64,000 nucleotides of DNA from an uncultured Alphaproteobacteria bacterium (GCA_963758355.1 CAVWVG010000004.1:574013-638012); one strand, 5' to 3'. Positions 44,556 to 63,014 are shown, counted from the first letter of the stretch. Numbers and translations are program-made. Notes: a model not told the origin generated them from the sequence alone.

Positions 44556-44569
44556 TTGATACAAGTCAA
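44556..44569. promoter_or_regulatory. FNR/FixK/Anr-type box TTGATACAAGTCAA upstream of arcD
   Basis: Matches TTGAT-N4-(A/G)TCAA. Lies 94-107 bp upstream of the arcD ATG, in an otherwise gene-free leader. Confidence 0.55.
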
Positions 44570-45691: not shown

Positions 45692-45742
45692 CAGGGAATT
45701 TCGCACCAGAGACGAGTTTGCTAAAGACTGCCAGCACCGCCA
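45692..45742. repeat. Island right-end repeat, copy 1 (putative recombinase half-site)
   Basis: CAGGGAATTTCGCACCAGAGACGAGTTTGCTAAAGACTGCCAGCACCGCCA versus 59582-59630 CAGGGAACGGTACCGGAGACTTGTTCGCTAAGGACTGCCAGCACCGCCA. Confidence 0.8.
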
Positions 45743-47391: not shown

Positions 47392-47465
47392 GTCGCCAGC
47401 CTACCACGGGCACGCCGACAAGGTATCAATGTGGGCCGGGGTTGAACCCAGCCGGATGGCCTGCT

Positions 47466-47610
47466 GCCGGCATTTCGGACACGAGGTTAAGCTAATATAG
47501 CTCGTTCCTCGAACTCCACGGGGCTCAGATAGCCCAGCGTCGAGTGGCGGCGCCTCTAATTGTAGAAGCGTTCGATGTAGTCGAACACATCCGCCCTGGC
47601 GTCCCTCGTC
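47466..47610 (-). pseudogene. IS3-family transposase 3' remnant with an internal stop
   Basis: My translation: TRDARADVFDYIERFYN*RRRHSTLGYLSPVEFEERAILA*. It begins abruptly at 47610, directly abutting the stop of the lipoprotein gene. Confidence 0.75.
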
Positions 47611-49347
47611 CTAGAGATCGGGTCGAACGGTAGCCGACAACGTGCCTTCTGCAAGTGCCCAAAGGTGGATTGCGTCGTCAGCAATCCAGATGTCCTTTGG
47701 GGTAAGTCTGGAAATAGTCCCGTTTAACTCGAGTTCAACACTTTTTTGCTGGAAGTTAGTCACCCCCGTTTTAACCTCCTGCAATGGCCCGGCGTAGTGA
47801 AACCTCAGCTTGTCTTCGATTATCTGCTCGAGCGAGCGCCCGTCGAACCAGGCAGCAGTCTTGAGCAAAACGCGCGTGGAATCGCCATCAAACCTTACGT
47901 CGGCGACACGAACTTCCTGCGCATCGAGATCAAGATAGGGTCGAGCCGTTAGATAGACGCTTCCCTCCACCCCCAGGGAGGGGCGCGTCGCAAAGGTTAG
48001 CCCGATGACTATACGCTGCCCGCTCTGATAAAACTCTACCTCGCTGACGGTCAGCGGCGCCGCCGGATATCTTTCGTCGAGGAACTTCACAATTTCCGCA
48101 TGAGCAAGGTTACTAGCAGGCTTGAGTTCTACCTTACCTTCGACTGATAGCGAAAAGCTGCTCGCGATGTCATTTGCAAGCACGATGGGTAGCGTTTCCT
48201 GGCCAGCAGGAGGCTTGGAGCCGAAGACGATTGCAGGCCGGGCTGCAACGCGCAACGCTAGGGCGAGCTTGTTGTCTTGGGCTTGGCCGCTGCCGACAAA
48301 CTGCGAGAGCGCAACCTGCTCGACATGCGTGGCAATCCATAAGTCAGATCCCATGGCGATTGGTTGCGCCGCGAGCTTCGAGATCTCGGCTACCCTGTCG
48401 GAGAACTGAAGCTTATCGCCAATCCCCTGCTTGAGTTGCTTGTTGACGATAGAAAGAAGGGCCGTTTCGACGGCTTTACTCAATATTTCTTTCTGAATGT
48501 AGAGCGAAATGTCGAAGAGCCCGGCATCCAGCAGTTCCACGGCGCCGGGCAGGCAGATCTTTTTGATGTCCAAACCAAATTCCTTTGCTTTAACATTGAT
48601 GGCCGGGGACGGCAGGATTTCGGTTCCAACGACTGCCGTAACGTGTGTGGTCACGTCACAGGCCAGAGCGCCCTTCACCGTCACATCAGCTCCAAGAAGT
48701 CCCTGCTTGACGTCTACCGAAACCTCTACCCGTAGATCTCCCGCGACCTTAATGTCGCTGCCTTGCGCGTCGATGTCGACAGATGTCAGGAAAACCTTGT
48801 GATTGATCCAGATCGTGGTCGGAGAAAGCTTCTCTTTCAGCTCGATGAACGGCTGTATCTCCGATTGAACTACCTCTTTGACCTCAGGCCAACATTCGGT
48901 AGCGTCCTTGAGGCAAGGCACGTAAACGGTTTCCACGATCGTCTCGAAACACTTGCCCGGCTTGTGAAAAATATTCGTGATGCAATTCTTGGCTACATTT
49001 TTCACAATGTTCTGAGGGCATTGCGCAGCGACCTGTTTGGTCAGGCAGCCGGCAGCCTTGAAAGGAGTAACGACCCTGTCGACGACCATGTCCTTCACAG
49101 ATTTTTCTTCGACCAGCAACTTCGCGTTGATCTCTCCGCTGCGGCCGGCGGTCAGCGGAGTTGATTGATATTTTGCCATCATGTTGGCTTCGACGTCGGC
49201 TGTGTTTACCGAGATGTCGACCCCGATGTTCGACTGAGGGATGGATACCGTGCGCTGGCTGTCGTTGTCTCGCGGAGGCGCCTCAGCGTTCCAATCGTCG
49301 CACCCTGCAAGTGTTAGTGTCACCAAAAGTAATAGCAGATATTTCAT
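47611..49347 (-). CDS. Large Cys-containing lipoprotein of unknown function
   Basis: MKYLLLLLVTLTLAGC lipobox, GGGGGA SD before ATG 49347, 578 aa. N-terminal third has a Cys cluster (CLTKQVAAQCPQNIVKNVAKNCITNIFHKPGKCFETIVETVYVPCLKDATEC). AT-richer than its surroundings. Confidence 0.75.
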   Translation of the reverse strand: MKYLLLLLVTLTLAGCDDWNAEAPPRDNDSQRTVSIPQSNIGVDISVNTADVEANMMAKYQSTPLTAGRSGEINAKLLVEEKSVKDMVVDRVVTPFKAAGCLTKQVAAQCPQNIVKNVAKNCITNIFHKPGKCFETIVETVYVPCLKDATECWPEVKEVVQSEIQPFIELKEKLSPTTIWINHKVFLTSVDIDAQGSDIKVAGDLRVEVSVDVKQGLLGADVTVKGALACDVTTHVTAVVGTEILPSPAINVKAKEFGLDIKKICLPGAVELLDAGLFDISLYIQKEILSKAVETALLSIVNKQLKQGIGDKLQFSDRVAEISKLAAQPIAMGSDLWIATHVEQVALSQFVGSGQAQDNKLALALRVAARPAIVFGSKPPAGQETLPIVLANDIASSFSLSVEGKVELKPASNLAHAEIVKFLDERYPAAPLTVSEVEFYQSGQRIVIGLTFATRPSLGVEGSVYLTARPYLDLDAQEVRVADVRFDGDSTRVLLKTAAWFDGRSLEQIIEDKLRFHYAGPLQEVKTGVTNFQQKSVELELNGTISRLTPKDIWIADDAIHLWALAEGTLSATVRPDL

Positions 49348-49424
49348 GTACTGATCCCCCACGATCTAGTCTTGTCTGTGACGTGCTCCCCGATTTGCGG
49401 AGGCAAACCAAACAACTGAGAGGT

Positions 49425-49453
49425 GGGGGCGGAGTGTTGGTTGTTCCGCCCCC
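49425..49453 (-). terminator. Strong hairpin after the second peptide gene (terminator or attenuator)
   Basis: GGGGGCGGA-N11-TCCGCCCCC, a perfect 9-bp GC stem. On the coding (minus) strand it is followed by ACCTCTCAGTTGTTTGGTTTG (moderately U-rich). Confidence 0.55.
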
Positions 49454-49490
49454 TGTTGTCCGGTCAACGGCTGGTTAGGCCGTCAGTTCT

Positions 49491-49637
49491 TCAGCAAGCG
49501 GCGAGACAGATCGACCGGGCCGGTTCGGGGAGCCGGTTGCAAAGTATCTCGCAGAGTCCCGAAGGGGTAACCCCGCCGGAGATCTTAGTTGGCGTCGCCG
49601 TCCGCTGAACGGCGCTGGCCTGAGTTGGCATTTTCAT
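49491..49637 (-). CDS. Cys-rich precursor-like peptide B (48 aa)
   Basis: MKMPTQASAVQRTATPTKISGGVTPSGLCEILCNRLPEPARSICLAAC. GAGAGGA SD 7 nt before ATG 49637. Its leader is paralogous to that of peptide A. Confidence 0.6.
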   Translation of the reverse strand: MKMPTQASAVQRTATPTKISGGVTPSGLCEILCNRLPEPARSICLAAC

Positions 49638-49730
49638 CTTGGAGTCCTCTCTGATCTGCTGGCCCGGGACGCACAGCAATGAAGTGTCTGCACCTACGTC
49701 CGCCCCCGCAGCGGTGTGCAGCCCGTTGTT

Positions 49731-49946
49731 TCAGAAGCAATCGATGCAGCCGGACGCGCCAATTCCTGCGAGGCACTCAACGCAGGCTGTCCCCAAGGAT
49801 CCGACGCAGACGGCGCCGCAGGCTATGATCGCGGTTCCGCACGCGATCTTCTTCAAGACATTGCAGCCTGATGGCTCTATTGAGTCTTCGTCCGGAGCCT
49901 GACTTGCATTTCGGAGTACGGGCAGAGCTTGAACGGGCATCATCAT
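49731..49946 (-). CDS. Cys-rich precursor-like peptide A (71 aa)
   Basis: Verified codon by codon: MMMPVQALPVLRNASQAPDEDSIEPSGCNVLKKIACGTAIIACGAVCVGSLGTACVECLAGIGASGCIDCF. AAGGAGAG SD. Starts 79 bp after the protease gene. Confidence 0.65.
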   Translation of the reverse strand: MMMPVQALPVLRNASQAPDEDSIEPSGCNVLKKIACGTAIIACGAVCVGSLGTACVECLAGIGASGCIDCF

Positions 49947-50024
49947 TACAGTCTCTCCTTGTTGAAGCTGGATCGGAATGCGGCCAGCAGTTGGTGATCA
50001 TCAGAAATCGAAGCGAATTCGGGC

Positions 50025-51937
50025 TTACACGCGCTTGGTCCAGCTCCGGACCGTTCCAACGGTGACCGGAATTACCTCGCTAACATCGATGGTGAACCGA
50101 AACACACGGTTCGCCATGTTCATGTTGTTCGGTTGGAAGAACGACAATTCGACGTCATAGCATTCGGAGTTGATCCTGCAGATCGGACTCTTCTTGACCT
50201 CGATGGTGTCGAGCTCGAGCTGATGCTGCGTGGAGACCCGCACGACGTCGACAATCTGAACCGCGTTCGTGGCAGAGTAATTCAGCGCGCGATCCTCGCC
50301 GGTGATCCCGAGATTGCGCAGATCGTAATAAATTCGATTGAGGAAGTTACCGAGCCCGCCGGCGAGCGCGTCGAAGCTCTTTTGAGCCTCGGCTGCCTTC
50401 GGACGCGGACCGAGCACATGGCTGACAAGAGCCGGCGTCGCCCAGCTGAACATGCCGCGCATAGAAGGCACGATCACCGGGACCACCTGGCCCGACTGTA
50501 GTCGCACGCTGCCGCCGATCACACCCGGAACCGAGATCAACTCCACACCGTCGGTCAATTGCCCTTTCAACAGGCTCACTATCCGCCCATAGCCCGCAGA
50601 TGCGAATGGTCCGACAGGCTGAATGGCGTAGATCGGGGTGACATCGACATTCAGCGTCCAGATCACGGACCCTGCTTCAGATGGATTTGCATCCAAATAG
50701 GAAAGCAGCTGCTCAGGAATTGGGGATTGTTGATCCCGACCGGCATGGCCTGGGTGAACGAGTTGCGACGCGCTTCAGATCCGAAGTCGTACCCAAGTTT
50801 CCCGAGCGCGTAGACGAACGGCAGTTTCTGCGCAACCTTCTCGCCCCCGCACCCGCAGCCGGATTTCTTTTCGCCACCTCCGCAACCACAACCGCCATCG
50901 GACGGAGTGAGGTCGGACATCGCGATGCCGGATATCTCCGCGGGACCGCTCGGCATCGGACTTCCGGTGCCGCCGTCTCCTTTGATTTCAGATGCGGTAA
51001 AACCGGCTTCGCTCATTGAATGATTTTCAACTTCGCTCATGCTCATAACTCCCTTCTGGATGTGATCAATGGCACCCTGGACGTTGATTCGGCCTGCGAG
51101 TATTCTCGAGCACTCCTCAACGCCAGACGGAATGCAGGGAATTGCGGAATGCAGCAGCGCTTCGCCGACCGCGCGCGGATCCGGCGACCGTCCAACCTTG
51201 ATCTGACTGCTTAGTAGAAGTGCGGCGAGCCCGGACACCAGCGGGGTCGCAAAGCTCGTTCCGCTCTTTCGCGCCATGCCGCCTTGCAAGGCAGCGCCCA
51301 GTATGTCGGATCCTGGCGCGAGGATGCCCTGATTGCGATACGTCGAGCCGTAGTTGCTGGACGGCAGCGGTTGACACTTGTCGTCCATGGCGCCGACGGC
51401 CAGCACAGAAGCGACGGCTGCGGGAATGTGCAGACACTCGCAGCCGTCGTTGCCGGCGGCCGCGACGATCAGGACATTCTGCCTAATGCAGCTATCGATC
51501 GCCTGTGCCAGTATCGGATGCGGTTCCCCGGACTTTGCTAGCTGGCCGCCGCTGATATTTATGACGTGTGCGCCGTTCTCGACCGCGAGCAGAATGGCGC
51601 GCGCCAAGTCGAGTTGCGAACATTTCAGGCTGTCGTCGCCGAAAACCGGGACGATCAAACCACCACAGAATGGCGCAATGCCCTCTATCGAACTGCCTAG
51701 CTGCCCAAAAATCAGGCTGGCAACGTGGGTCCCGTGCTCCGTGGCGCCGCCGTCGGCCGAAGTTACGCTGGCAACCGTTTTCAACGGCGTCAAACGAGCG
51801 CCGCGAAAGCAATCATGCGTGAGGTCCACGGGACCATCGAGCACGGCAATCGTAACGTTCGGATCGCCGCCTCCGAGCGCAATCAGAACATCCTGACGAA
51901 ATACTGCAGCCGTTCTGCCAACCATTACACTCTCCAT
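50025..51937 (-). pseudogene. PatA/PatG-family (cyanobactin-type) S8 subtilase with C-terminal PatA/G DUF. One -1 frameshift as assembled; may be intact in reality
   Basis: Catalytic triad contexts VLDGPVDLTHDCF / EHGTHVASLIFGQ / SGTSFATPLVSGLAALLLS. Linker contains GGCGCGGGEKKSGCGCGG. DUF signature is FVYALGKLGYDFGSEARRNSF ... (frame change at the GGGG run 50722-50725) ... QLLSYLDANPSEAGSVIWTLNVDVTPIYAIQP. Likely start at M5 (51925), behind GGAGAG. Confidence 0.8.
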
Positions 51938-51970
51938 CGCCGCACGCAGAGCAACGCGCCAGCCATGCCT

Positions 51971-52234
51971 TCATCTGCTTTTGCAAACTATCCAGCAAAC
52001 CGCTTCGCACTGGGGCCCAGCGCCTCTGCGCCGGCATTCTCGGATACAGCGAGAGCAGGACGAGACGGATGCCGGCCTCTCGGCTCGCATTGGCGTCATG
52101 CGCGCCGCCGGCTTGATGATCGGCTGGAGGTCGGCTGCCATCGCAGATAACGGCAGCAGCACGCCAGCCCCGCTGACGCCGGTAGCCCACAACGCAAGCG
52201 CAATCATGAAAATCCGTTTTCGAAACACGAGCAT
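51971..52234 (-). CDS. Small secreted Cys-rich protein (87 aa precursor)
   Basis: Sec-type signal MLVFRKRIFMIALALWATGVSGAGVLLPLSAMA|ADL. The C-terminus SSCSRCIRECRRRGAGPQCEAVCWIVCKSR has six Cys. GAGG SD. Sits immediately upstream of the protease gene. Confidence 0.5.
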   Translation of the reverse strand: MLVFRKRIFMIALALWATGVSGAGVLLPLSAMAADLQPIIKPAARMTPMRAERPASVSSCSRCIRECRRRGAGPQCEAVCWIVCKSR

Positions 52235-52244
52235 GATCCTGCCT

Positions 52245-52478
52245 CTATTCCGCGCCGGATGTCCGGCCTATCTGTCGACCGCCAACGCTGCCCGGGAATC
52301 GGGAAACGAACGTTGCCTCGACGCCCCCGGCGACGACATCCTGACGTTCTGATAGCGCTTGCTGTCGGTCTGTTGGTGCGGCTGGCCGGGCGCGAGATTG
52401 ACAACCTTTGCGCACGCCCGAGTGGGGGCCCGCGCTCATCGCGCAAACTGCCCATCCGAGCACAACAAGTCTGTTCAT
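52245..52478 (-). CDS. Small hypothetical protein with a signal-like N-terminus (77 aa)
   Basis: MNRLVVLGWAVCAMSAGPHSG...; AGGGA before the ATG; first ORF of the minus-strand cluster. No family recognised. Confidence 0.25.
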   Translation of the reverse strand: MNRLVVLGWAVCAMSAGPHSGVRKGCQSRARPAAPTDRQQALSERQDVVAGGVEATFVSRFPGSVGGRQIGRTSGAE

Positions 52479-52637
52479 GCGGTATCCCTAGTTGCGAGCG
52501 CCGATGAATTTCGGTTGGGCACACCATTCCGCGGCGACGTTCGCAATTTGCGAACAAAGGGTTCAGGTCATGAGAAAAAAACGTGATCGAGTTGTGAAAA
52601 CTGGTATGTTCGCTTTGGGCGGGAGGACGAAATAAGT

Positions 52638-54410
52638 GTGATGGCCGCGGTTAAGCAGTTCACGATGGGTCTATTCGGGCCCTTTCGACTTCTGAAACCC
52701 GGGGGTGAGCGCATAGAGATCCCCAGCAAAAAAGGAGTTGCGGTGGTTGCAATGCTCGCCATGGCAAAGGACGGCGAGCGCGCACGCGGTTGGCTGCAGG
52801 AAAAGCTATGGGGACAGCGGCAGCAAGCCGAAGCGCGCGGAAGCCTGCGTCGCGAACTTTCGAACCTTCGAAAACTGCTCAACCAAGACAGTGCAGCGCT
52901 TCTCGTTTGCGAACACGACCGCGTTCAGCTCGACCTCAAGCTGATCAACATCGATGCACGGAGCAGCCGCGATCACCCGCTGGCCTGCGAGTTTCTTGAA
53001 GGCTTGGACATTCCGGGCGAAGATGGATTCGAAGACTGGTTGCGAGACCAACGGGCTGCTCTGGCCCTGGAAGTGCGGCCTGCGGCGGTGATGCCAGGCA
53101 AGAAACCCGGTGATTCCAGAGAGATCGTTTCGTCGCTGCCAAGCCACATCGTCGATACAACAGAGCCGCCAGCCGGCTTTGACGGTAACCCGGCGCTCGC
53201 CGTCATGCCGTTCTCTAACGCGACTGGCGAAAGCGAACATAACTATCTCGCGGAAGGCATCAGCGAGGAAATTATCGATCGTCTGTCGCGGATCCGCTGG
53301 CTGCCTGTTATCGCGCGCAGCATGAGTTTCTCATTGTCCGATGTTTCCAACAGAAGAATCGTCAGCAAGAATTTGGGAGCGAAATATCTTCTCGAGGGCC
53401 GTCTGCGCCGCGAGCAAACAGGATATGGGATCGCCGCCAGCTTGATCGACGGGCCGAGCGGCCACACCCTGATGTCGCAGCGATTTGCCATAGACTCCCT
53501 GATTTCGCGGAATTCGTTTGAAGAATTCATGACCGAACTTGTCGCTCATCTCGAAGCACGGATCGATCACACCGAACAGGTCTGGACGCGCAGCAAGCGC
53601 CGGGACAGCCTCACCGTGAAGGACCTGATCTGGCGCGGCCGCTGGCACCTCAACAGACTGACCCGGGCCGACGCCAAGATAGCGCAGAAACTCTTTGCCG
53701 AAGCTCGCGCGCTCGATCCAGATTCGTCGGAGGCCCTCATCCAATCGACGTTTGCATTGGGCTGGGCAATCTGGGCCGGCCGCCAGCCGACCGAACGCAT
53801 AGCTGAAATGAAAAAGCTGGCCCAGGATGCGATCTACGCGGACCGGGACGACGGCCGCGGCTATATGCTGGCCGGTATCGCGGAGATGTGGCTGCGTCAT
53901 CCGATAGCCGCCAGAAGACTGTTGCAACAGGCGATCGAACTCAACCCGAGCCTTGCACTGGCAAGGGCGCATCTTGGTGGGAGCTGCAACCTTTCGGGCG
54001 AGCCAAGCGAGGCTATTTCGCATCTCAAGGCCGCACTGCGCCTCAGCTCAAATGACTCGCATACCTTTTATTCGCTTGCGGAACTGGCGCTTGCGTTCTG
54101 CATGCTCGGATTGTGGGATGAGGCGATCGAGCACGCCGATCACTCTCTCGCCCGCCGCCCGGCGTATTGGTACGCCCACGTCATCAAGATCAACGCCATG
54201 GCCAGGAAGGGCGAACTTTCCGCTGCGCGCCGTGCGCTGGACGAATTGCTGTCGGTGAAGCCGAATTTTTCACGGCGATACGTTGAATGGCTTCCGTTCG
54301 TGGACCGAACCTGGATCGGTCATTTCATGGCGGGCCTGAACATGGTCCCGGGCTACAGCATTGATCTTCCACCAGGAGACGATCAGGAGTTCCCCAGGGA
54401 GTTGAACTGA
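52638..54410 (+). CDS. SARP/BTAD-like winged-helix transcriptional regulator with a TolB-N-like middle and a TPR C-terminus
   Basis: LFGPFRLLKPGGERIEIPSKKGVAVVAMLAMA...RGWLQEKLWG...ARGSLRRELSNLRKLL (BTAD pattern). NPALAVMPFSNATGESEHNYLAEGISEEIIDRLSRI. TPR-like C-terminal repeats. Confidence 0.75.
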   Translation: MMAAVKQFTMGLFGPFRLLKPGGERIEIPSKKGVAVVAMLAMAKDGERARGWLQEKLWGQRQQAEARGSLRRELSNLRKLLNQDSAALLVCEHDRVQLDLKLINIDARSSRDHPLACEFLEGLDIPGEDGFEDWLRDQRAALALEVRPAAVMPGKKPGDSREIVSSLPSHIVDTTEPPAGFDGNPALAVMPFSNATGESEHNYLAEGISEEIIDRLSRIRWLPVIARSMSFSLSDVSNRRIVSKNLGAKYLLEGRLRREQTGYGIAASLIDGPSGHTLMSQRFAIDSLISRNSFEEFMTELVAHLEARIDHTEQVWTRSKRRDSLTVKDLIWRGRWHLNRLTRADAKIAQKLFAEARALDPDSSEALIQSTFALGWAIWAGRQPTERIAEMKKLAQDAIYADRDDGRGYMLAGIAEMWLRHPIAARRLLQQAIELNPSLALARAHLGGSCNLSGEPSEAISHLKAALRLSSNDSHTFYSLAELALAFCMLGLWDEAIEHADHSLARRPAYWYAHVIKINAMARKGELSAARRALDELLSVKPNFSRRYVEWLPFVDRTWIGHFMAGLNMVPGYSIDLPPGDDQEFPRELN

Positions 54411-54446
54411 CGTTCATTTCAATACGATTTTCTTGATGAGGCAGCC

Positions 54447-57400
54447 ATGTTGACGCTGAAATATTACGCCGCGATCAAAGGAGCTCAGCACAAGACAGAA
54501 GCCGACCCGCCCGACGCTATCCTGCCTTTCGACTTCGACAAACTCGGAGCAGATAGCTGGCGCCGACGCGCATTTATCTGGCTGACCGGCTGGCTGTTTC
54601 CTGTAGTGCTCGCGTTGTTTCGTGCGATCTGGCCCAATCCGAAATTCTGGCGTCTCATTATCGTGACGCGCGCCACCGACGTTCGCGACGTCCTGATGAG
54701 GACTGCCGACTTCGAGGTGCCCTATCGTCTCGAGATGACCGAACTCGCCGGAGGAGAAAAATTCGTTCTGGGCATGGAAGGCTCCGGTCACGACCAACAG
54801 AACCAACACATTCGAACCGTTATGCCGGCCAGCGACGCCCAGGTGGTCATCGACTTGAGTCATCGATTTGCGAACGCCCTGATCAGAACGTCAGGCGGCC
54901 GCATCGACGTGATGAAGGACTTCATCACTCGGATCGCCACCGAAACCTGTGCCGCCTATTTCGGACTACAGCTGGAAGATCCCGACGCTTTTGCAGAATG
55001 GACGATGTCGATCTCTGCTCTGCTGTTCGCCGATCCCTTCGGCGACGCCGCCACGCGGGAGTTGGCTCTGAATGGCGCGGCTCGTGTGCGCGCCGTCATA
55101 GACCATTCGATCGCGAATGCGGCAAGTCTGCCGCCAAACACCGTCCTTGGCCGGTTGATCGGTCTCAAGGCAACGGACCAGACTCTAACGGACAAGAAGA
55201 TCGGCGCCATCCTGGTCGGATTGGCAACCGGATTTATTCCGACGAATACGCTCGCCGCCGGAAAGATTTTGCAGGAACTGCTACGCCGTCCGAAACTCCT
55301 GCGCGATGCCATCGGCAAAGCACGTAACGCCAGCCGGATTGACGGCGAAAATCGAATGACTGGCAGAAACGAGAACCCTGACAAGCAGGCGCTTCAGGCA
55401 ATCCTTCTTGAGGCTGCGCGCGTTAACCCCGCTCTAGCCCCCGGACAATGGCGCTACGCCAGACAGGACGCTGTCATCGCGCCCGACACCTGGCGACAGC
55501 GAAAGGTACCGAAGGGCTCGGTGCTGATGGTCGCGACCATGTCGGCATTGCGGGAAAAGTCTAACGGCGCCAAACCCGATACGGACCTTATGTTCGGCGA
55601 CGGCATCCACGCATGTCTGGGCAAGTACATCGCGATGGCCCAGATCACCGAAGTGTTTACTATCCTGCTTTCACAAATCAATCTGCGCTTCAGCGAGGAT
55701 ACCTGGGGCAGCCGCATCAGATGGGTTGGCCCGTTCCCCCGCCGGCTCGACATGACGTTTGATCCGGCTGTCTCGCCCAGCACCCAAGCCATGATCACGA
55801 TCTGCGCCCCCCTTGTCGTCGGCGAGGGAGAGGACCCTGCCAAGAAGGCGCAGGACATTCAGAGGAAGATTGCGGAGCTGAAAAATCCGGCGAACGCCCA
55901 GATGCGGGAGACGTTCGACAAGACCGGCATCGTCCACTTCGCTTCGCTCTCGCTGGTCGAGGCAGGCGATGCCAAGAGCCCGGCGCCGCATCTGCTGTTT
56001 GAACTGAATGTCGATGGTTCCGGCGAAACGGCGTTTCAGCTAATCGCCAATGCAGATATCGAAGTGGCCGATGGCAAACTCCATTCGATATTCCGGAACA
56101 CGCTCAAGAGCAACGCAGGCCTTGCCGATATCCTCAGCAGCTACGTCCTCGAATTGAAAACCCGTCCGTGGGGCCCGATCGGCCTTAACTTTAACGGTAC
56201 GCCGGAGTTTTCCGTTCCCGACATTGCGATGCAGGAATTGCTGTCGAAATTCGCCAAGCAGACCCTTAATTTCTATATGAGTTTTCACTCCGGTTTCGGT
56301 AATCGCGCAATGGAGGCGCTGAAGTTCATCCGCATATTCTTACGCAATCCCTCCGCATACCAAGCCGTTCTAAAGGACCCCAGATACGATAGTGCGGAAT
56401 TGCGGGAGATGATCGATGTGGCACCAAAACTAGTGGATTACCTTATCGTTCCAAGCAGGCGGCAGCTCAAAATCTCTGCCTGGAAGGATTGCAGCCGTAA
56501 GGAGGCGATTTTCAAGTTCGTGCAGACTTGGAATTTCTGGTGCTTCGCCCTCCCTGTGATCATGGTCGCTTTTCTGTTTGGACTCGCGATCTTCTTCGCG
56601 ACGGCGACGTCAGCGATCATTTTGCTTGGCCTTGCGGGCCGAATCACGCTCGCCGTCATCGGCGGTCCCGCGATGGTGCTGATTTTGCTGGCACTTGTCG
56701 TCACTGTTTTCGTGGCCTTGCTTCGACACCACGAGATCCGCGACATTCCGGACGATCAGAATCCGAATCTCGAGCATGTCCGCGAGATCAGCGGCATCGA
56801 AAACGCGCCCGGGTTCGCGCAAAATCATTTTATGGCCGTTACAGAATTGAAGGGCGGATGGTTCAGGAAGGTGACGCTTGCGTTGTCCCTGTGGGGCATC
56901 AAGCAAATGGTGCTGTTTCTATTCCGCCCCGGCTTCGTCCTCAACATGGGGACCATTCATTACGCGAAATGGTTTCGAATACCGGGTCGCGACAAATTGA
57001 TCTTCCAGGCCAACTACGACGGTAGCTGGGAAAGCTACCTGGAGGATTTCATTATGAAGGCCCACCAGGGCCAGACCGCAGCCTGGGGCAACGGCGTCGG
57101 CTTTCCCCGCACCAGTTACCTGATTAATAACGGCGCCCAGGATGGCGACCGATTTAAGCGCTGGGTACGCCGCCAACAGGTCATCGCGCACTTCTGGTAC
57201 AGCCGCTTTCCCCACCTAACGGCTGATCAGATCCGCAACAACGCGCTGATCCATGACGGACTGGCGCGGGCGGCGACCGGCTCGGCCGCTCGCGCCTGGC
57301 TCGACTGCTTTAGCTCTATCCCTCGCCCGGACTACGCCATCGAGAGCGATGAGGTTCAGTCACTGGTGTTCCGGGGCCAGCGGTCACTGCCTTGCTCGAT

Positions 57401-59036
57401 CTGCGCCCTGATCCATTTGCCCGGTACCAAGCAAGCTCGCATCAAATGGCTTGAAAAACTCGAATATGGCAGCGCGTCGCGGCATGGTAGCATCCAACTG
57501 CGGGAACGGGACAAATCCTGCGAAATCACATTTGGTGACCATCCCTCTAACGGCGAGCGCGAGCGGAACCATGCCACGTTCGTCGCCTTTAGCGCGGCCG
57601 GACTGCACAAGCTCGGCCTCGCCGATCCGACCAAGCAGGACGGACTGGGTACGTTTCCCAACACGTTCAATCTCGGGATGGCCAACCGCGGCCGCAGCCT
57701 TGGCGATTTCGGAGAGACCGCGTCGGCTGAGTGGCGCTGGACAGACGCGGCCATTAAAATAGGTGGCCCCGCGGCCGTCGATGCCGTGCTGCTGATATGC
57801 GCCGGTAGTTCCGAAGCGTGCAGGGAGGCTCTCGGCAAGCATCTCGAATTGCTCGGGCCTGGCGCCTTGGCTCATGAGATCCCGACCCAGCCCCCGACCC
57901 AGATCCTAGGCTACGATGACGAAGGGCGCGCCGTCATCAAGACGCTACCCGACGAGACCAGCAAAACCGGTCGCCGTCCGGTCGCTGGCTATGCCAAGGC
58001 AAGCACAACGGCTAAGATCGATCCCGTCGAATACGAGCATTTCGGGTTTCGCGACGGCATTTCCCAGCCGGTGATCCGGGGAACCCAGCGGTTCTCGAAA
58101 GGTGCCCGCAAGCGCGACATTGTTGAGCCCGGCGAATTCATTCTCGGATACCGCAACAATCAGGGATACTATCCGCCGACCGCGACCGTACGTGCTGAAT
58201 CGGATTCGAAGCTGCATCTTCCGATCGTGCTTGCCGATGTTCCAAGCCGATTCCCCTCGTATGGAGGGGGCAATGCCGCCGCGCGCGATTTCGGCCGAAA
58301 TGGAAGCTTCCTCGTCATCCGGCAACTTGAGCAGAATGTCGAAGGATTCAAGGATTTCGTCGAGGCAAAGGCCTCGGAGCTGCGGCGCGAGTATGAAGGC
58401 CTTACCGAAGCTGCGGGCGCGCCCATCACCGCGCAATGGGTCGCCGCTAAGATGTTGGGTCGGTGGCCTGACGGCGCGCCGCTGGTCGACCGTCCCAGCG
58501 CGAACAGTGGTGGCTATCTACAAAAGCACGAACAAAGCGATAACAACTTTACCTTTGGTGCAGACGATCCACAGGGCCTGCTTTGTCCATTTGGCGCCCA
58601 CATTCGCCGTGCCAACCCGCGCGACAGCATGCAGCCGGACGATCCCTCACAGCAGCCGATCACCAATCGCCATCGGCTCCTGCGGCGTGGCAGAACTTAC
58701 GAATACGAGCCCAAGAAAGACGGCAGGATCGAAAAGGGCCTGTTGTTCATCTGCCTCTGCGCCGATCTGGATCGGCAGTACGAATTCGTCCAACAAACCT
58801 GGATTCAATCGCCTTCATTTCACGGCCTGAAAGACGAGCCCGACCCGATGGTGGCTTGCCCGGACCCCGGCAAATCCCGCGTCTTTACAATTCCAACACC
58901 GGCGGGACCGGTCAGGATACGCAACATGAAGACCTTTGTGACCGTCCGCGCAGGCGGCTACTTCTTCCTGCCGAGCCGTTCGGCCATCCGGTATCTGGTG
59001 GACATCAACCAGGCTGAGCACACGCTACGAACATGA
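54447..59036 (+). CDS. 1529-aa fusion: N-terminal cytochrome P450, two middle regions of unknown function on either side of a 3-TM cluster, and a C-terminal DyP-type peroxidase
   Basis: P450: ExxR (LEAARVNP) and heme-thiolate loop FGDGIHACLGKYIA (about 55593-55634). TM cluster FWCFALPVIMVAFLFGLAIFFATATSAIILLGLAGRITLAVIGGPAMVLILLALVVTVFVALL (about 56535-56720). DyP: EHFGFRDGISQPVIRG (GxxDG, about 58035) and PFGAHIRRANPRD (proximal His, about 58590). One uninterrupted ORF; GAGG SD. Confidence 0.85.
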   Translation: MLTLKYYAAIKGAQHKTEADPPDAILPFDFDKLGADSWRRRAFIWLTGWLFPVVLALFRAIWPNPKFWRLIIVTRATDVRDVLMRTADFEVPYRLEMTELAGGEKFVLGMEGSGHDQQNQHIRTVMPASDAQVVIDLSHRFANALIRTSGGRIDVMKDFITRIATETCAAYFGLQLEDPDAFAEWTMSISALLFADPFGDAATRELALNGAARVRAVIDHSIANAASLPPNTVLGRLIGLKATDQTLTDKKIGAILVGLATGFIPTNTLAAGKILQELLRRPKLLRDAIGKARNASRIDGENRMTGRNENPDKQALQAILLEAARVNPALAPGQWRYARQDAVIAPDTWRQRKVPKGSVLMVATMSALREKSNGAKPDTDLMFGDGIHACLGKYIAMAQITEVFTILLSQINLRFSEDTWGSRIRWVGPFPRRLDMTFDPAVSPSTQAMITICAPLVVGEGEDPAKKAQDIQRKIAELKNPANAQMRETFDKTGIVHFASLSLVEAGDAKSPAPHLLFELNVDGSGETAFQLIANADIEVADGKLHSIFRNTLKSNAGLADILSSYVLELKTRPWGPIGLNFNGTPEFSVPDIAMQELLSKFAKQTLNFYMSFHSGFGNRAMEALKFIRIFLRNPSAYQAVLKDPRYDSAELREMIDVAPKLVDYLIVPSRRQLKISAWKDCSRKEAIFKFVQTWNFWCFALPVIMVAFLFGLAIFFATATSAIILLGLAGRITLAVIGGPAMVLILLALVVTVFVALLRHHEIRDIPDDQNPNLEHVREISGIENAPGFAQNHFMAVTELKGGWFRKVTLALSLWGIKQMVLFLFRPGFVLNMGTIHYAKWFRIPGRDKLIFQANYDGSWESYLEDFIMKAHQGQTAAWGNGVGFPRTSYLINNGAQDGDRFKRWVRRQQVIAHFWYSRFPHLTADQIRNNALIHDGLARAATGSAARAWLDCFSSIPRPDYAIESDEVQSLVFRGQRSLPCSICALIHLPGTKQARIKWLEKLEYGSASRHGSIQLRERDKSCEITFGDHPSNGERERNHATFVAFSAAGLHKLGLADPTKQDGLGTFPNTFNLGMANRGRSLGDFGETASAEWRWTDAAIKIGGPAAVDAVLLICAGSSEACREALGKHLELLGPGALAHEIPTQPPTQILGYDDEGRAVIKTLPDETSKTGRRPVAGYAKASTTAKIDPVEYEHFGFRDGISQPVIRGTQRFSKGARKRDIVEPGEFILGYRNNQGYYPPTATVRAESDSKLHLPIVLADVPSRFPSYGGGNAAARDFGRNGSFLVIRQLEQNVEGFKDFVEAKASELRREYEGLTEAAGAPITAQWVAAKMLGRWPDGAPLVDRPSANSGGYLQKHEQSDNNFTFGADDPQGLLCPFGAHIRRANPRDSMQPDDPSQQPITNRHRLLRRGRTYEYEPKKDGRIEKGLLFICLCADLDRQYEFVQQTWIQSPSFHGLKDEPDPMVACPDPGKSRVFTIPTPAGPVRIRNMKTFVTVRAGGYFFLPSRSAIRYLVDINQAEHTLRT

Positions 59037-59362
59037 TCGATTTAATAAATTCCTCAAATCGGGCTTGCCTCGCCTCGACTGTTACAGCGTCAGATCATCC
59101 CAATTCCGGTTCTGGGCATGACCCAAGGCAAGGTTGGATTCGGTCCCGCGCCATCAGTCTTGCTCGGGTTCCCTTCCGACTCCATACACGGGGCGGGAAC
59201 CGCTTTTTGGCGAACCGGCGCCAGCTTCGCATGTGCGCAAAACGACAACGTGCTACAGCGAAACGACAATTGCCAATCGTTTAACGCAGATGCCATCCCG
59301 CATAGGCACAATTACCAACCATTCTGCGCCAATCCGATCCCGCGTTTCGACAATTCGGTCGC

Positions 59363-59410
59363 ATAATGATAGCCCGATCCCGGATAATGGCACTTCCATC
59401 CCAGATAATG
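59363..59410. repeat. Three ATAATG motifs phased exactly 21 bp apart in the right arm of island 2
   Basis: ATAATG at 59363, 59384 and 59405. The last two sit in a longer repeat, ATCCC(G/A)GATAATG. Confidence 0.5.
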
Positions 59411-59581
59411 AAAATGCCAATTCCTTGATCGCGAGGGCATATGCCTGAAATTGCGGGATGATTCCCTGTTCGACGGCGCAGGGAATTGAGAGCCAACCGA
59501 TTGATATTACATAGTTATTGTCGATGAGGTCGGATTGAAAACGCCGAAATCGCCAGTTTTCGCTGTTTTTTCACTGTTTAT

Positions 59582-59630
59582 CAGGGAACGGTACCGGAGA
59601 CTTGTTCGCTAAGGACTGCCAGCACCGCCA
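59582..59630. repeat. Island right-end repeat, copy 2
   Basis: See 45692-45742. Followed by the unrelated sequence CCACGCAGATTGTCC (presumed original tRNA-Ser flank). Confidence 0.8.
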
Positions 59631-59911
59631 CCACGCAGATTGTCCGGCCCGGAGACATGGGTAACAGTTTGTACCTAGGACATGGATGACAATCTCGTGC
59701 CGAAACGCTGGCGCGGTCGCCACGCGTCCTGGACCAGGGCCGGGTTCATCGCTAGCAGCGAAATTATTTGCCTAGTGGGCTTCCGCTGGCACCGCGGCAG
59801 CCGAGCCCGCCCAAAACTGGTTTCGTATATCAGAATTTTCTAATATAACTGGTGGAACGCTGCGACGACACTGGGCGGGAGGGCAGCGGTTCATTTTGTC
59901 AGGAGGATGCC

Positions 59912-60988
59912 TTGCGATTGCGCGTGCTGGATTTCGGCTTCGTTTCCGCGTTGCGCAGCCAGGCGGTATATCATGGCGTCGCGCACACGATCACGCCGGA
60001 TTCCGATCCGGTGCTGACGCTGGTCAACCCCGATACGCCCTATGTCTGCGTCGGCGTGCACCAGGAGGTCGCCGCCGAAGTCGACGAAGCTTTTTGCAAC
60101 GCCAACGGCTTGCCCATCATCCGCCGGCATGTCGGCGGTGGTGCGGTCTATCTCGACCGCAACCAGATGTTTTTCCACTTCATGTATCCGCGGCAAAAGG
60201 CCCCTGAATTTGCCGTCAACCTCTATCCGCGGTTCATCGAGCCGGCCGTACGCACTTACCGCGAACTGGGCGTCGCCGCCGAATACCGGCCGGTGAACGA
60301 TATCCAGGTCGCCGGCCGCAAGATCGGCGGCACCGGGGCAGCCTCGATCGACGAGGCGACTGTCATGGTCGGCAGCTTCATGTTCGACTTCGATACCGCC
60401 ACGATGGCGAAATGCCTGAAGGTTCCTTCGGAAAAATTCCGCGACAAGCTGAAGACGACGCTCGACGACTACATGACGACGATGACGCGCGAATTGTCGA
60501 AACTGCCATCCCGCGAGGCGGTGAAGGACATGTTTCTGCGCCATTGCGCCGACGTCCTTGGCGTCGAGCCGGTGGCAAGCGAACCGACGCAGGCCGAACT
60601 GGCGGCGATCGCGGCCGAGGAGAGGGCGCTGAGCGATCCGGCATGGACCTACCGGAAGGGCAAGGTCCGCGACAAACTCGGCGTCAAGATTTCGGAAGCC
60701 GTGCATCTGAGCGAGGCGATGCACAAGGCACGCGGCGGTCTGATCCGCACCAGCCTGCTGGCGCGCGACGGAAGGATCGAAAACTTGATGCTTTCCGGAG
60801 ATTTTACCTGTCTGCCGGAGGAGGGGGTCGATCGTCTGGCAACTGCCTTGTCCGGCGCCGAACTGCAGCACGACGCATTGACCGGGAAGGTCGCCGGCGA
60901 AATGAAGCGGCTGAAGCTCGACATGCCGGCGGTCGAGCCCGCCGATATCGCCACCGCGATCATGGCCGCGACGGCAGCGAGGAATTGA
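59912..60988 (+). CDS. Lipoate-protein ligase family protein (biotin/lipoate A/B ligase domain), sHdr-associated type
   Basis: LRVLDFGFVSALRSQAVYHGVA...RRHVGGGAVYLD...VAGRKIGGTGAASI. Start placed at TTG 59912 after AGGAGG (uncertain). Confidence 0.75.
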   Translation: MRLRVLDFGFVSALRSQAVYHGVAHTITPDSDPVLTLVNPDTPYVCVGVHQEVAAEVDEAFCNANGLPIIRRHVGGGAVYLDRNQMFFHFMYPRQKAPEFAVNLYPRFIEPAVRTYRELGVAAEYRPVNDIQVAGRKIGGTGAASIDEATVMVGSFMFDFDTATMAKCLKVPSEKFRDKLKTTLDDYMTTMTRELSKLPSREAVKDMFLRHCADVLGVEPVASEPTQAELAAIAAEERALSDPAWTYRKGKVRDKLGVKISEAVHLSEAMHKARGGLIRTSLLARDGRIENLMLSGDFTCLPEEGVDRLATALSGAELQHDALTGKVAGEMKRLKLDMPAVEPADIATAIMAATAARN

Positions 60989-61028
60989 GCCCGGCAGGTC
61001 AGAGACGGCGTTCGGGGCGGGTGCCGCG

Positions 61029-61730
61029 ATGAAGACGCTTTGCGTCGTGCAGCACATCGAGGCGGAATATCTCGGCTACCTCGAGGATCATCTGGAAAGC
61101 CGCTCGATCCGCTTCCGCTATGTGCGGCCTTTCACCCCCAGCGGAAAACTGCCGCAGAAAATCGAAGAATTCGACGGATTGGTTCTGCTCGGCGCCGGAC
61201 CTTTCGGCATCGTCAGTGGCTCGCTGTTGCCGAGCCTCGGTCCGGAACTGAGGCTGGCGAAGAGTTTTCTCGATGGCGGCAAATCCGTTGTCGGCATCGG
61301 TCTCGGCGCGGTTCTTCTGGCGGTTGCTGCCGGAGGAGGGGCGGCCGAAATGCCGCTTCGCTTCGAGGTCGGAACGGCGCGGCGAGAACAGGCCGATGCG
61401 CTGGGCGGCACATTGCCCGAAACCTTCCCGTATGCCGCCTATCTGCGCGACGCCGCGGTATTGCCGGCCAGCGCGCGGGTGCTGGCGAGCTCGCAAGGCA
61501 GTGACCCGCTGATTTTTTCGCTGGGCGAAAACGCGCTGGGGTTTATCGGCCATCCCGGCTTCAAGGCCGCGATGGCCGAAGACATCATCATGGAATCCGC
61601 GGAAACACCGGCGGAAACAGCCGAATCCCTCGCGAAACTGCGCGAAAGCCAACCGGGCATCACGGAAGCGCTCAGCAGCATGATGGTCGGCATCGTGCGC
61701 CAATGCGGCTGGATGTCTGCAGATAGCTGA
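61029..61730 (+). CDS. Class I glutamine amidotransferase-like protein
   Basis: MKTLCVVQHIEAEYLGYLEDHLESRSIRFRYVRPF...FDGLVLLGAGPFG...VVGIGLGAVLLA, a GATase1-like fold pattern. Confidence 0.6.
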   Translation: MKTLCVVQHIEAEYLGYLEDHLESRSIRFRYVRPFTPSGKLPQKIEEFDGLVLLGAGPFGIVSGSLLPSLGPELRLAKSFLDGGKSVVGIGLGAVLLAVAAGGGAAEMPLRFEVGTARREQADALGGTLPETFPYAAYLRDAAVLPASARVLASSQGSDPLIFSLGENALGFIGHPGFKAAMAEDIIMESAETPAETAESLAKLRESQPGITEALSSMMVGIVRQCGWMSADS

Positions 61731-61871
61731 TGCGCCACCGGCATGGCCGGAAACAAAGATTCAGAATTTTCTGGATTCCCGGAAAAAGTTATTATATTAG
61801 CACTTGCGCAAGTATGCATGAGCGCCGTTCGCGCGGTCATGCGACGGCGTTCGACGGAGGAGGAGTGCGGC

Positions 61872-62252
61872 ATGGCGAGCAAGCTCGTCATCATCATGGT
61901 CAACACCGATCCCCGCAACGGCGAGGAGTTGGGCGCGCCCTTCTTCCAGGCGACGGTTGCCGCGGCGATGGACTACGAGGTCGAGGTGATCTGCACTGCG
62001 ACTTCCGGCCAGCTCATGAAAAAGGGCGTCGCCGAGAAATTGGTGGTCAAGCCCGGCTCGCCGAAAACCGTCTACGATTTCATCAAGGATGCGCATGAGG
62101 CCGGCGTCAAATTCTATTGCTGCTCGCCCAATCTCGATCTGTTCGACATGACCGCCGAAGATCTGATTCCGGAATGCGAAGGCATTGTCGGCGGCGCCAA
62201 GGTGATCGAATCCGTGATGGAGGACGATAACGCGAAGGTGTTGACCTACTGA
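61872..62252 (+). CDS. DsrE/DsrF-like sulfur-relay family protein
   Basis: MASKLVIIMVNTDPRNGEELGAPFFQATVAAAMDYEVEVICTATSGQLM...FYCCSPNL. GGAGGAG SD before ATG 61872. Confidence 0.7.
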   Translation: MASKLVIIMVNTDPRNGEELGAPFFQATVAAAMDYEVEVICTATSGQLMKKGVAEKLVVKPGSPKTVYDFIKDAHEAGVKFYCCSPNLDLFDMTAEDLIPECEGIVGGAKVIESVMEDDNAKVLTY

Positions 62253-62270
62253 GGAGAGGCCAGGACGAAG

Positions 62271-63014
62271 ATGGCGCAAGCGGCTGTAGCGGCCAGCGAC
62301 CCGATCTCGGCGGAACCGCCGGTCCCGCGCGAAAAACTCGAGGAGATTTTCTCCGACATCAAGTCGCACATGCTGTTCGATCACGAACTGCATGGCTGCC
62401 TGAACTGCGGCATCTGCACCGCCACCTGCCCATCGGCGCATTACTACGATTATTCGCCGCGCGAGATCGTCCAGTTGCTGTGGACGGAAAATCTCGAGGG
62501 CATCTACGACACCATGCAGGAGAAAATCTGGGCTTGCGCCCAGTGCTACACCTGCGCGGCTCGCTGCCCGTTCGAGAATTCGCCGGGTGGTCTTGTGATG
62601 ATCATGCGCGAGGTCGCCATCAAGCACGGCATGCAGTCGGCCAAGGACGTGCTGCGGCCGTTCTCGCGCGTGCTGCTCAAGGTGATTTCGACCGGCAACC
62701 AGCTGGCGCCGAACATGATCACCAAGGAAGCGTTCCCCGACTGGGGGCCGAATGTCAGCAAGGTCGACGCGCCTCTGAACATCCTGCGCAAGGCGATCCC
62801 GGTCCCGACCATGCACACGATGGACACCGCCTGGGTCGTCAACCTCAAGACCTCGGTCGAACTTTACACGATCTGGGAAGCAACCGGCGTGCTCGATCAG
62901 CTCGAGACCGTCGACGAGAACCTGTTCGACGTCGTCACCGACGTGATGGACGAAAAGCGCGAGGAATACCAGGAATGGCTCGAAGCGCAGGAAGAAGCCG
63001 AGAAGGCGGACTAG
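62271..63014 (+). CDS. hdrC: Heterodisulfide reductase subunit C-like 4Fe-4S protein
   Basis: CLNCGICTATCPS and CAQCYTCAARCPF ferredoxin-type cluster motifs. Followed by the hdrB-like gene. Confidence 0.8.
   Translation: MAQAAVAASDPISAEPPVPREKLEEIFSDIKSHMLFDHELHGCLNCGICTATCPSAHYYDYSPREIVQLLWTENLEGIYDTMQEKIWACAQCYTCAARCPFENSPGGLVMIMREVAIKHGMQSAKDVLRPFSRVLLKVISTGNQLAPNMITKEAFPDWGPNVSKVDAPLNILRKAIPVPTMHTMDTAWVVNLKTSVELYTIWEATGVLDQLETVDENLFDVVTDVMDEKREEYQEWLEAQEEAEKAD

Follow-up and report, generated by a model that had tools for sequence, protein, structure and literature searches.

A cytochrome P450–DyP peroxidase fusion of subclass V4 and its split-gene relatives: domain architecture, genomic context and possible roles

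A 64,000-nucleotide stretch of genomic DNA from an uncultured Alphaproteobacteria bacterium (GCA_963758355.1 CAVWVG010000004.1:574013-638012; hereafter the window, to which all coordinates refer) contains, at 54447..59036 on the plus strand, one open reading frame (ORF) of 1529 codons. Its product joins a cytochrome P450 domain, a two-repeat module interrupted by a transmembrane (TM) hairpin and a dye-decolorizing peroxidase (DyP) domain. The best explanation of our results is that this ORF is an intact member of DyP subclass V4, i.e. a two-heme protein of the inner membrane tethered by a two-helix hairpin. The single-chain, membrane-anchored protein with two heme domains proposed in an earlier note, which was made from the sequence of this DNA alone, is thereby borne out, the hairpin and the preserved catalytic residues of both domains being the evidence for it.

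The architecture itself is already catalogued. A bioinformatic study entitled 'Unexpected diversity of dye-decolorizing peroxidases' (Biochem Biophys Rep 2022;33:101401; PMC9719856) defined the DyP subclasses, assigned the P450-TM-DyP arrangement to V4 and listed it as "unexplored"; it left "unclear whether ... same or opposite sides" of the membrane hold the domains, and proposed either H2O2 scavenging or a two-step synthesis like that of the Ppo proteins. The window protein is a V4 member, sharing with that subclass an N-terminal P450, a TM region and a C-terminal class V DyP with distal Asp and Arg and proximal His. The 2022 study consists, for V4, of a domain cartoon and DyP active-site logos; the two repeats, the split-gene forms, the replacement of the I-helix acid by Pro and the conserved regulator described below go beyond it. 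The novelty suggested in the earlier note is overstated, as the architecture and the scavenging and Ppo-like ideas had been published; its statement that no P450-DyP fusion has been characterised did hold in the searched literature, where the 2022 description was the only account found.

The fused protein, its family and its split-gene forms

The features of the ORF are as follows (all on the plus strand).

54447..59036, +, P450 / repeat A / TM hairpin / repeat B / DyP fusion; complete 1529 amino acid (aa) ORF, stop codon included
54447..54611, +, N-terminal leader, residues 1-55; holds the start of a hydrophobic stretch (43-61), no conserved TM segment
54612..55781, +, cytochrome P450 domain, ~residues 56-445; split-gene equivalents, PDB and NCBIfam P450 matches
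55218..55250, +, I-helix GLATGFIPTNT, residues 258-268; Pro265 at the acid position, Thr266 kept
55410..55421, +, K-helix ExxR, E322-A-A-R325; E322 in 190/194 and R325 in 192/194 P450 domains
55593..55622, +, heme-thiolate loop FGDGIHACLG, residues 383-392; Cys390 is the proposed axial ligand
55782..56516, +, repeat A (mid1), residues 446-690, alpha+beta; includes GIVHFASL...LLFELNVDG; AlphaFold2 (AF2) per-residue confidence (pLDDT) mostly >90
56529..56723, +, two-helix TM hairpin, ~residues 695-720 and ~729-759; family hydropathy and AF2 helices
56739..57401, +, repeat B (mid2), residues 765-985; includes GTIHYAKWF...LIFQANYDGSWESYLEDF and DGDRFKRWVRRQQ
57402..59033, +, class V (C/D-type) DyP peroxidase domain, ~residues 986-1529; PDB, Pfam and TIGR01413 matches
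58044..58058, +, GXXDG motif G1200-F-R-D1203-G1204 with the distal catalytic Asp; D1203 and G1204 each in 242/244 DyP domains
58593..58622, +, proximal His motif GAHIRRANPR, residues 1383-1392, with H1385; H1385, R1387, R1388 and R1392 each in 244/244
58668..58694, +, RHRLLRRGR segment with the putative distal Arg, R1413; R1413 and R1416 each in 244/244

The frame starts with ATG, preceded 8 nt 5' by a GAGG Shine-Dalgarno sequence, and contains no internal stop. Re-checking of the translation placed the motifs GLATGFIPTNT, EAAR, FGDGIHACLG, GFRDG and GAHIRRANPR where the earlier note had put them, and the uninterrupted ORF that it described is also that of the homologues: 276 relatives were retrieved in a protein search, of which more than 100 are full length (~1460-1600 aa), at 44-75% identity. 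They come mostly from Alphaproteobacteria, the organisms including Bradyrhizobium, Rhodopseudomonas, Afipia, Reyranella, Vineibacter, Caulobacteraceae and Ramlibacter; their annotations do not go beyond "cytochrome P450" or "Dyp-type peroxidase family". When GTDB was scanned with one genome per species, 116 genomic stretches encoding a relative were identified; 79 loci, again mostly alphaproteobacterial and nearly all spanning query residues 1-1520, were kept. P450-DyP is a conserved family, neither a one-off nor an assembly artefact.

Length varies within the family. Three segments of the window protein, residues 296-310, 1009-1023 and 1150-1192 (57894-58022), are lineage-specific insertions, at columns that consist mostly of gaps in the family alignment of 110 sequences; the largest, 1150-1192, is 43 aa long, rich in Lys, Thr and Gly, and separates the two halves of the DyP domain. 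Longer fusion variants of 1600-2014 aa occur in Reyranella and relatives (L043, L048, L049, L053, L056 and proteins P0060, P0065, P0118); their best local alignment covers ~52% of the query, which indicates a large insertion or an extra region. The fusion of one Sphingomonas locus (L020) has ~250 additional N-terminal residues.

The two heme domains are recognized rather weakly by database profiles. Pfam p450 (PF00067), for which a match is precomputed in most homologues, scores 17.5 bits in the window protein (cutoff 22.8) and covers the Cys loop only (residues 371-416). NCBIfam P450 models match residues 72-288 (E = 3e-11), and PDB P450s align weakly over residues 72-443 (1e-7 and worse), the closest being bacterial class I enzymes, P450revI-like 3wvs and CYP113A1 (1e-7 to 1e-6). 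Both the Cys-ligand loop FxxGxxxCxG and the K-helix ExxR are present, and G384, H388, C390 and G392 are each found in all 194 P450 domains of the family alignment. The P450 assignment made previously is supported by these matches together with the retained ExxR and Cys390 loop.

What is missing from the domain is the acid–alcohol pair of the I-helix. This D/E-T pair serves O2 activation and is typical of P450s without being universal. Aligned with split-gene P450s (see below), G262-F-I-P265-T266 falls onto their canonical G-A-I-D-T-T, and in the family alignment the acid position is taken by Pro265 in 186 of the 194 domains, T266 being kept in 189. An Asp was found there in four cases, all of them split-gene P450s (L077, L079, L080 and L083), in which Asp-Thr is preserved. 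The lack of an acidic residue, pointed out in the earlier note, is therefore a property of the fused form but not of the system as a whole, and the corollary that the P450 cannot activate O2 is weakened because these four enzymes keep the pair. No flavin or Fe-S reductase domain was matched in the fusion protein by Pfam or NCBIfam, which sets it apart from the self-sufficient P450s (CYP102, CYP116B) with their fused FMN/FAD or Fe-S reductase; residues 456-985 hold only four Cys. The partner-independent CYP152 peroxygenases (P450BSbeta, OleT) and CYP74 enzymes (allene oxide synthase, hydroperoxide lyase) are similar in lacking the canonical acid–alcohol pair and in needing no reductase. However, CYP152 has Arg-Pro at the position of the pair where the window protein has Pro-Thr and no Arg, the Cys loop of CYP74 contains an insertion where that of the window protein has canonical spacing, and no CYP152 or CYP74 structure was among the PDB matches of the P450 part.

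The C-terminal domain matches TIGR01413 (DyP) over residues 1197-1512 (E = 8e-23; 81.3 bits, cutoff 100.5), Pfam DyP_N over residues 1038-1130 (22.2 bits, cutoff 27.5) and Pfam Dyp_perox_C over residues 1407-1454 (22.4 bits, cutoff 20). PDB matches are led by 8re3 (1e-40), the ancestral D-type 7anv (2e-29) and fungal DyPs (1e-19 to 1e-22), followed by DyP2 and AnaPX; EfeB/YcdB are weaker (1e-4 to 1e-6). By these sequence relationships the domain is class V, nearer to C/D DyPs than to class I (EfeB) or class P. Its similarity to the class V enzymes of D. radiodurans (8re2/8re3), fungi (2d3q/4au9), Amycolatopsis (DyP2, 4g2c) and AnaPX (5c2i) extends over residues 1273-1520 (E = 1e-40 to 1e-15), and all have the Asp of GXXDG, the proximal His and the distal Arg in common; those enzymes are, however, soluble stand-alone proteins of 440-490 aa, whereas here the domain is the C-terminal third of a membrane-anchored chain and falls below the TIGR01413 cutoff. 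D1203 is the distal Asp and H1385 the proximal His; R1413 is the probable distal Arg, given the usual His-to-Arg spacing in DyPs. The full DyP domain recognized in the earlier note is thus substantiated by the conservation of D1203, H1385 and R1413 and by the 8re3 match. Since these three residues, Cys390 and the ExxR motif are near-invariant, both domains are under selection as working heme enzymes; as judged from the alignments, their catalytic residues are under strong purifying selection.

In some loci the two enzymes are encoded separately. In L077, L079 and L080 a gene for a P450 of 376-413 aa, equivalent to query residues 56-438, immediately precedes one for a protein of 944-961 aa that is equivalent to query residues 446-1518; the genes abut or overlap by 4 bp, and the natural domain boundary can therefore be set at residues 440-446. 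Repeat A is the N-terminus of such separately encoded long DyPs. A P450 gene directly 5' of a long DyP without its own P450 was also seen in L083/L084 (the long DyP of L083 having 959 aa), L085/L086, L087, L090, L091, L092 and L093, so that the arrangement holds in 10 out of 10 loci with usable upstream DNA (L077, L079, L080, L083, L085, L087 and L090-L093; L088, with 80 nt upstream, was left out). Fusion in one lineage and adjacency in others are the classic signature of proteins that work together: the P450 and the long DyP are obligate partners, whether fused or encoded by adjacent genes.

The module that links them is widespread. A profile of residues 456-985 matched 2025 cluster representatives (50% identity) at E <= 1e-3, 919 of them at E <= 1e-30. 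Architectures were read from the best 150 of the 2025 representatives; among the 139 that were newly returned (P0121-P0259), 76 are P450 + A + B + DyP and 49 are A + B + DyP without P450 (~910-1120 aa). A few representatives suggested a third architecture with the module only (for example P0121, 538 aa, and P0226, 623 aa); those checked by tblastn were traced to frameshifted fused or long genes on metagenome contigs.

A duplicated module around a membrane hairpin

Residues 456-985 gave no match in Pfam, NCBIfam or PDB sequences, in agreement with the earlier note, in which two middle regions could not be assigned to a family. A G protein-coupled receptor match to their profile among PDB sequences (E = 1.4) was discarded as spurious TM similarity. 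Across 110 homologues this region contains two strong hydrophobic segments (median 19-residue hydropathy 2.26 and 2.54), which correspond to two long helices in the AF2 model; the cluster of about three TM helices suggested previously is not borne out. Nor is its N-terminal TM segment, at least as a conserved anchor, since the stretch 43-61 attains a maximum hydropathy of >=1.6 in just 11% of the same homologues.

An AF2 model of residues 456-985 built on 75 diverse sequences (pLDDT 92.2, predicted TM-score 0.88) places the two long helices (~695-720 and ~729-765) between two alpha+beta halves; it supersedes a model from a 15-sequence alignment of the same residues, which had a mean pLDDT of 56 and for which Foldseek matches were meaningless. 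In this model the halves on either side of the hairpin form a single body; they, and likewise the P450 and the DyP, are therefore predicted to lie on the same side of the membrane, which by prediction addresses the topological point left open in PMC9719856. The common side is most likely the cytoplasm: separate P450s and separate long DyPs have no evident signal peptide (their N-termini were inspected by eye), and the charge bias is of the positive-inside type, with 2.7 and 3.1 K+R in the 20 residues before and after the hairpin vs 1.2 in its loop (110 homologues).

The two halves are repeats. Their shared pattern, IVHFASL...LLFELNVDGS in repeat A and TIHYAKW...LIFQANYDGSWE in repeat B, had been taken as a hint of internal duplication, and hhalign with the diverse alignment confirms it (P = 1.3e-4 over 99 colinear columns, the alignment reaching GLNFNGTPEFSVPDI in A and HFWYSRFPHLTADQI in B), whereas the shallow family alignment gave a non-significant result (E = 0.22). 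The AF2 secondary structure, a beta-hairpin plus helix, is alike in both. The two repeats are copies of a single alpha+beta unit that have diverged from each other. Neither mid1 nor mid2 was found by hhalign to be related to the DyP halves or to the P450, the lone value of 8.5e-4 reflecting an 11-residue overlap of sub-alignments.

Repeat B is the best conserved stretch of the entire protein in the family conservation profile. Among diverse representatives that are 30-50% identical, near-invariant polar residues are H497 and D523 in repeat A, and E763, E785, N793, H794, H838, Y864, E866, D867, K904, R905 and R908 further on. Their conservation points to a putative catalytic or cofactor/substrate-binding site in the module. 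As for its fold, the top Foldseek match is the ABM/ferredoxin-like 9ltx (probability 0.97, TM 0.34), followed by 9lmn, 3fez, 3fj2 and 4kia. The ABM, or dimeric alpha+beta-barrel, proteins Abx(+)O (9ltx), WhiE-ORFI (9lmn) and LmHde (4kia), matched with probabilities of 0.97, 0.92 and 0.38, consist like the module of two homologous beta-hairpin-plus-helix units; the E-values, however, are 0.08 or worse, the TM-scores 0.15-0.36, sequence similarity is lacking, and in the module a TM hairpin lies between the halves. The model thus fits a two-unit alpha+beta barrel without proving it, and the ABM resemblance is to be taken as a lead and not as membership.

Regulator and genomic neighbourhood

The features referred to in this section, in the window and then in related loci, are as follows.

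49491-49679, -, Cys-containing ORF, ~48-62 aa; flanks the protease
49731-49946, -, 71-aa Cys-rich ORF ending ...CVGSLGTACVECLAGIGASGCIDCF; flanks the protease
51971-52234, -, 87-aa ORF; N-terminus resembling a signal peptide, C-terminus rich in Cys; flanks the protease
52638..54410, +, upstream regulator, 590 aa; SARP/OmpR-type winged-helix N-terminus, middle region, C-terminal tetratricopeptide repeats (TPR)
59852-60988, +, lipoate-protein ligase
61743-62252, +, DsrE-family protein
L085:3349-6480, L087:3519-6554, L090:1552-4677, L091:697-3732, cyclase-AAA_16(-TPR) sensors with a Guanylate_cyc domain
L060:6171-7673, L064:6329-8023, L071:6397-7995, -, proteins of neighbour cluster c59, divergent, upstream of the regulator

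Neighbour clustering over the 79 loci identified the regulator as the sole conserved neighbour of P450-DyP. It ends 36 bp before the start of the fusion gene in the window, and the two are therefore probably co-transcribed; an orthologue of ~600 aa lies directly upstream on the same strand in 65 of the 79 loci (median gap -40 bp). The TPR repeats of the window copy were located by Pfam at residues 408-545; NCBIfam models for HilA/EilA (9e-8) and CadC (8e-4) match, and a family profile of the N-terminus finds EmbR (2fez, 2.6e-4) and AfsR (8hvr, 3.7e-4). The resemblance is to SARP regulators such as EmbR and AfsR, in which an OmpR-type winged helix precedes TPR/BTAD-type parts, but it is distant (E ~3e-4), the middle region has no match, and related loci replace the winged helix-turn-helix (wHTH) with a class III cyclase. 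Proteins with such a cyclase-like N-terminus and a retained TPR part occupy the position of the regulator in Henriciella, Halioglobus and others (L039, L041, L044, L059, L067, L072 and L075). A Guanylate_cyc-AAA_16(-TPR) protein of ~1000 aa is encoded ahead of the P450 in four loci of the split-gene clade (L085, L087, L090 and L091), three of which (L085, L087 and L090) also have a gene for a Crp-type cyclic nucleotide regulator nearby. A conserved sensor with interchangeable output domains is the mark of a dedicated signal-transduction protein, and induction of the enzyme by a particular cue is accordingly probable.

Genes for ferredoxins, reductases or biosynthesis do not recur among the neighbours in the 79 loci. 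In the window itself no redox partner was seen among the ORFs scanned with Pfam at 44.5-64 kb, a partial ORF set, and to this extent the absence of a redox partner from the island, stated in the earlier note, stands. The lone Fe-S protein among the scanned ORFs is a 4Fe-4S dicluster protein (62271-63014, +) beside the DsrE and lipoate ligase genes; the set at 59852-63014 recalls sHdr/LbpA sulfur-oxidation clusters and is probably unrelated to the P450.

G+C content is 0.556-0.604 across 44000-60000 of the window vs 0.62-0.64 on either side. This region includes a serine-recombinase-type gene (Pfam Recombinase; 46138-47391, -) and a gene for a DUF4403 lipoprotein (47611-49362), and it may be a horizontally acquired island comprising P450-DyP, its regulator, the protease and peptide genes and the DUF4403 gene. 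Two overlapping ORFs (50663-51937 and 50025-50696, -) match TIGR03895, the model for PatA/PatG proteases of cyanobactin maturation, with E-values of 4e-109 and 7e-87, cover model positions 1-245 and 380-605 and are joined by a Gly/Cys-rich linker, GGCGCGGGEKKSGCGCGG; the PatG-like protease looks like one gene split by a frameshift or sequencing error near 50696. The three small Cys-containing ORFs that flank it are, from their sequences, possible precursors of ribosomally synthesized and post-translationally modified peptides (RiPPs).

Other neighbours are sporadic. Two Sphingomonas loci contain a second, stand-alone DyP (L020:6678-8084 and L021:6677-8371, both -), a paralogue of 468-564 aa that shares 27% identity with the DyP part; it is divergently oriented and just upstream of the regulator/P450-DyP pair. 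The c59 proteins (500-564 aa) weakly resemble animal heme peroxidases (PF03098, E = 9e-4, below threshold) with no PDB match, and occur in three loci only, from two Nitratireductor metagenome-assembled genomes and Sphingomonas naasensis; a real heme dioxygenase at this place would fit an oxylipin-type pathway. Clusters c3, c7, c13, c33 and c55 were set aside because they look like antisense ORFs rich in Arg and Ala, such as arise when ORFs are called crudely in DNA of high GC content. A role in defence was considered as S8 and caspase-like proteases and TPR proteins adjoin; PADLOC returned nothing for P450-DyP or the regulator, and there was no sign of a known defence system.

Possible function

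We propose, tentatively and at a level of confidence that falls a little short of calling it probable, that the module and hairpin present a lipophilic substrate on which the P450 and the DyP act in sequence, with a peroxide as oxidant in the fused clade. In this view a substrate that partitions into the membrane would enter or bind at a membrane-facing site formed by repeat module and hairpin; the two hemes would work on it in succession; the oxidant of the fused clade would be H2O2 or an organic hydroperoxide and not NAD(P)H with a redox partner; and a specific signal, relayed by the SARP-wHTH/TPR protein, would induce expression. A peroxide is suggested because Pro replaces the I-helix acid and no reductase or ferredoxin is conserved nearby, and the peroxide-shunt or hydroperoxide mechanism of the earlier note is plausible by analogy. 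Scavenging and Ppo-like synthesis were also arrived at independently in PMC9719856. A formal parallel is provided by the fungal Ppo/linoleate diol synthases and oomycete CYP5619, which also combine a peroxidase-type heme domain and a partner-independent P450 in one chain and serve as the working analogy for two-step chemistry on a lipid. Their peroxidase, however, is N-terminal and of the animal-heme-peroxidase/cyclooxygenase fold, whereas here an unrelated DyP (ferredoxin-like) fold is C-terminal; Ppo proteins have neither TM hairpin nor repeat module, and Pfam found no An_peroxidase (PF03098) in the fusion protein, in which the domain order is the opposite. The likeness is convergent at most.

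Several points weigh against this proposal. To our knowledge DyPs do not make hydroperoxides, which renders the Ppo analogy loose. The structure model comprises residues 456-985 with the heme domains outside it, and so does not bear on the proximity of the two hemes; Foldseek returned nothing for it at E < 1e-3, and its fold is weakly assigned. An O2- and electron-driven P450 may be possible, at least in L077, L079, L080 and L083, and our view being that of a 64-kb window, a ferredoxin and a reductase may be encoded elsewhere in the genome. No experiment on any member was found in the searched literature.

A different account is that of a conventional class I P450 using O2 and NAD(P)H with partners in trans, whose hydroxylated (phenolic) product is oxidised or coupled by the DyP, the fusion serving to channel the intermediate. 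Bacterial P450s often use partners encoded in trans, and the Cys loop conforms to the canonical FGxGxHxCxG of bacterial class I enzymes; the Asp-Thr pair of the four split-gene P450s agrees with it as well. But the acid is replaced by Pro in 186 of the 194 domains, that of the window protein included, and neither a ferredoxin nor a reductase recurs in the 79 loci; we regard this account as unlikely, although not negligible. We are similarly doubtful about a peroxide scavenger, in which both hemes would consume H2O2 or lipid hydroperoxides at the membrane and protect lipids or respiratory complexes without forming a specific product. P450s and DyPs both react with H2O2, the protein is anchored in the membrane, no biosynthetic genes are conserved around it, and scavenging has been suggested for V4 (PMC9719856); nevertheless, two heme chemistries and a conserved module of ~500 aa appear costly for mere scavenging, the obligate pairing in all ten split loci argues for coupled chemistry, and the associated regulators are SARP/TPR proteins or cyclase sensors and not of the OxyR/PerR/OhrR type. 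In addition, the closest DyP of known structure, that of D. radiodurans, is reported to be inactive at physiological pH (PMC10820274).

Two further explanations are very improbable. The idea that the enzyme tailors the neighbouring Cys-rich peptides in a RiPP pathway, raised in the earlier note, draws on the PatA/PatG-like protease and small Cys-rich ORFs found 0.7-5 kb upstream on the opposite strand, and on an S8/PatG-like protease near the gene in 8 of the 79 loci by neighbour clustering, with a Peptidase_S8 gene also called upstream in the R. palustris loci L001 and L002. Most loci, however, lack the protease, no Cys-rich ORFs comparable to those of the window were found beside it elsewhere, the protease gene of the window itself appears to be split by a frameshift, and the conserved unit consists of the regulator and P450-DyP only; a functional link between the peptides and P450-DyP was rejected as unsupported. 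Equally hard to credit is a non-oxidative role, as a heme-based sensor or in heme/iron handling of the EfeB "deferrochelatase" type. Some homologues are labelled "deferrochelatase/peroxidase EfeB" by JGI, and the gene is always beside signalling proteins, but the DyP is of class V and not of the EfeB-type class I (EfeB matches being limited to 1e-4 to 1e-6), there is no evident Tat signal, EfeU/EfeO neighbours are absent, and the Asp, Arg and His of the peroxidase catalytic set are invariant.

The P450 plus long DyP system, very large and strongly conserved, is frequent in bacteria of soil and water (Bradyrhizobium, Rhodopseudomonas, Sphingomonas, Reyranella, Hyphomonadaceae and unassigned metagenome contigs), and each of the two heme chemistries that it unites is of biocatalytic interest. 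A natural reductase-free P450 wired to a DyP would appeal to enzymologists and engineers alike. The domain boundary at residues 440-446, the predicted same-side cytoplasmic topology, the candidate residues H497, D523, E785, N793, H794 and H838 and the regulator make the problem tractable, and the signal that induces the dedicated regulator could reveal the physiological role. A bolder version of our proposal, which we consider improbable as it stands, is that of a widespread bacterial two-heme system (at least 2,000 clusters at 50% identity), fused or encoded as an obligate gene pair, whose hitherto undescribed duplicated module, divided by the membrane hairpin, would take up a membrane lipid or isoprenoid; the system would convert it into a signalling or protective metabolite in two peroxide-dependent steps under SARP/TPR or cAMP (cyclase plus Crp) control. 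If true, this would make it the DyP-based equivalent, in bacteria, of the fungal Ppo and the coral and plant oxylipin synthases.

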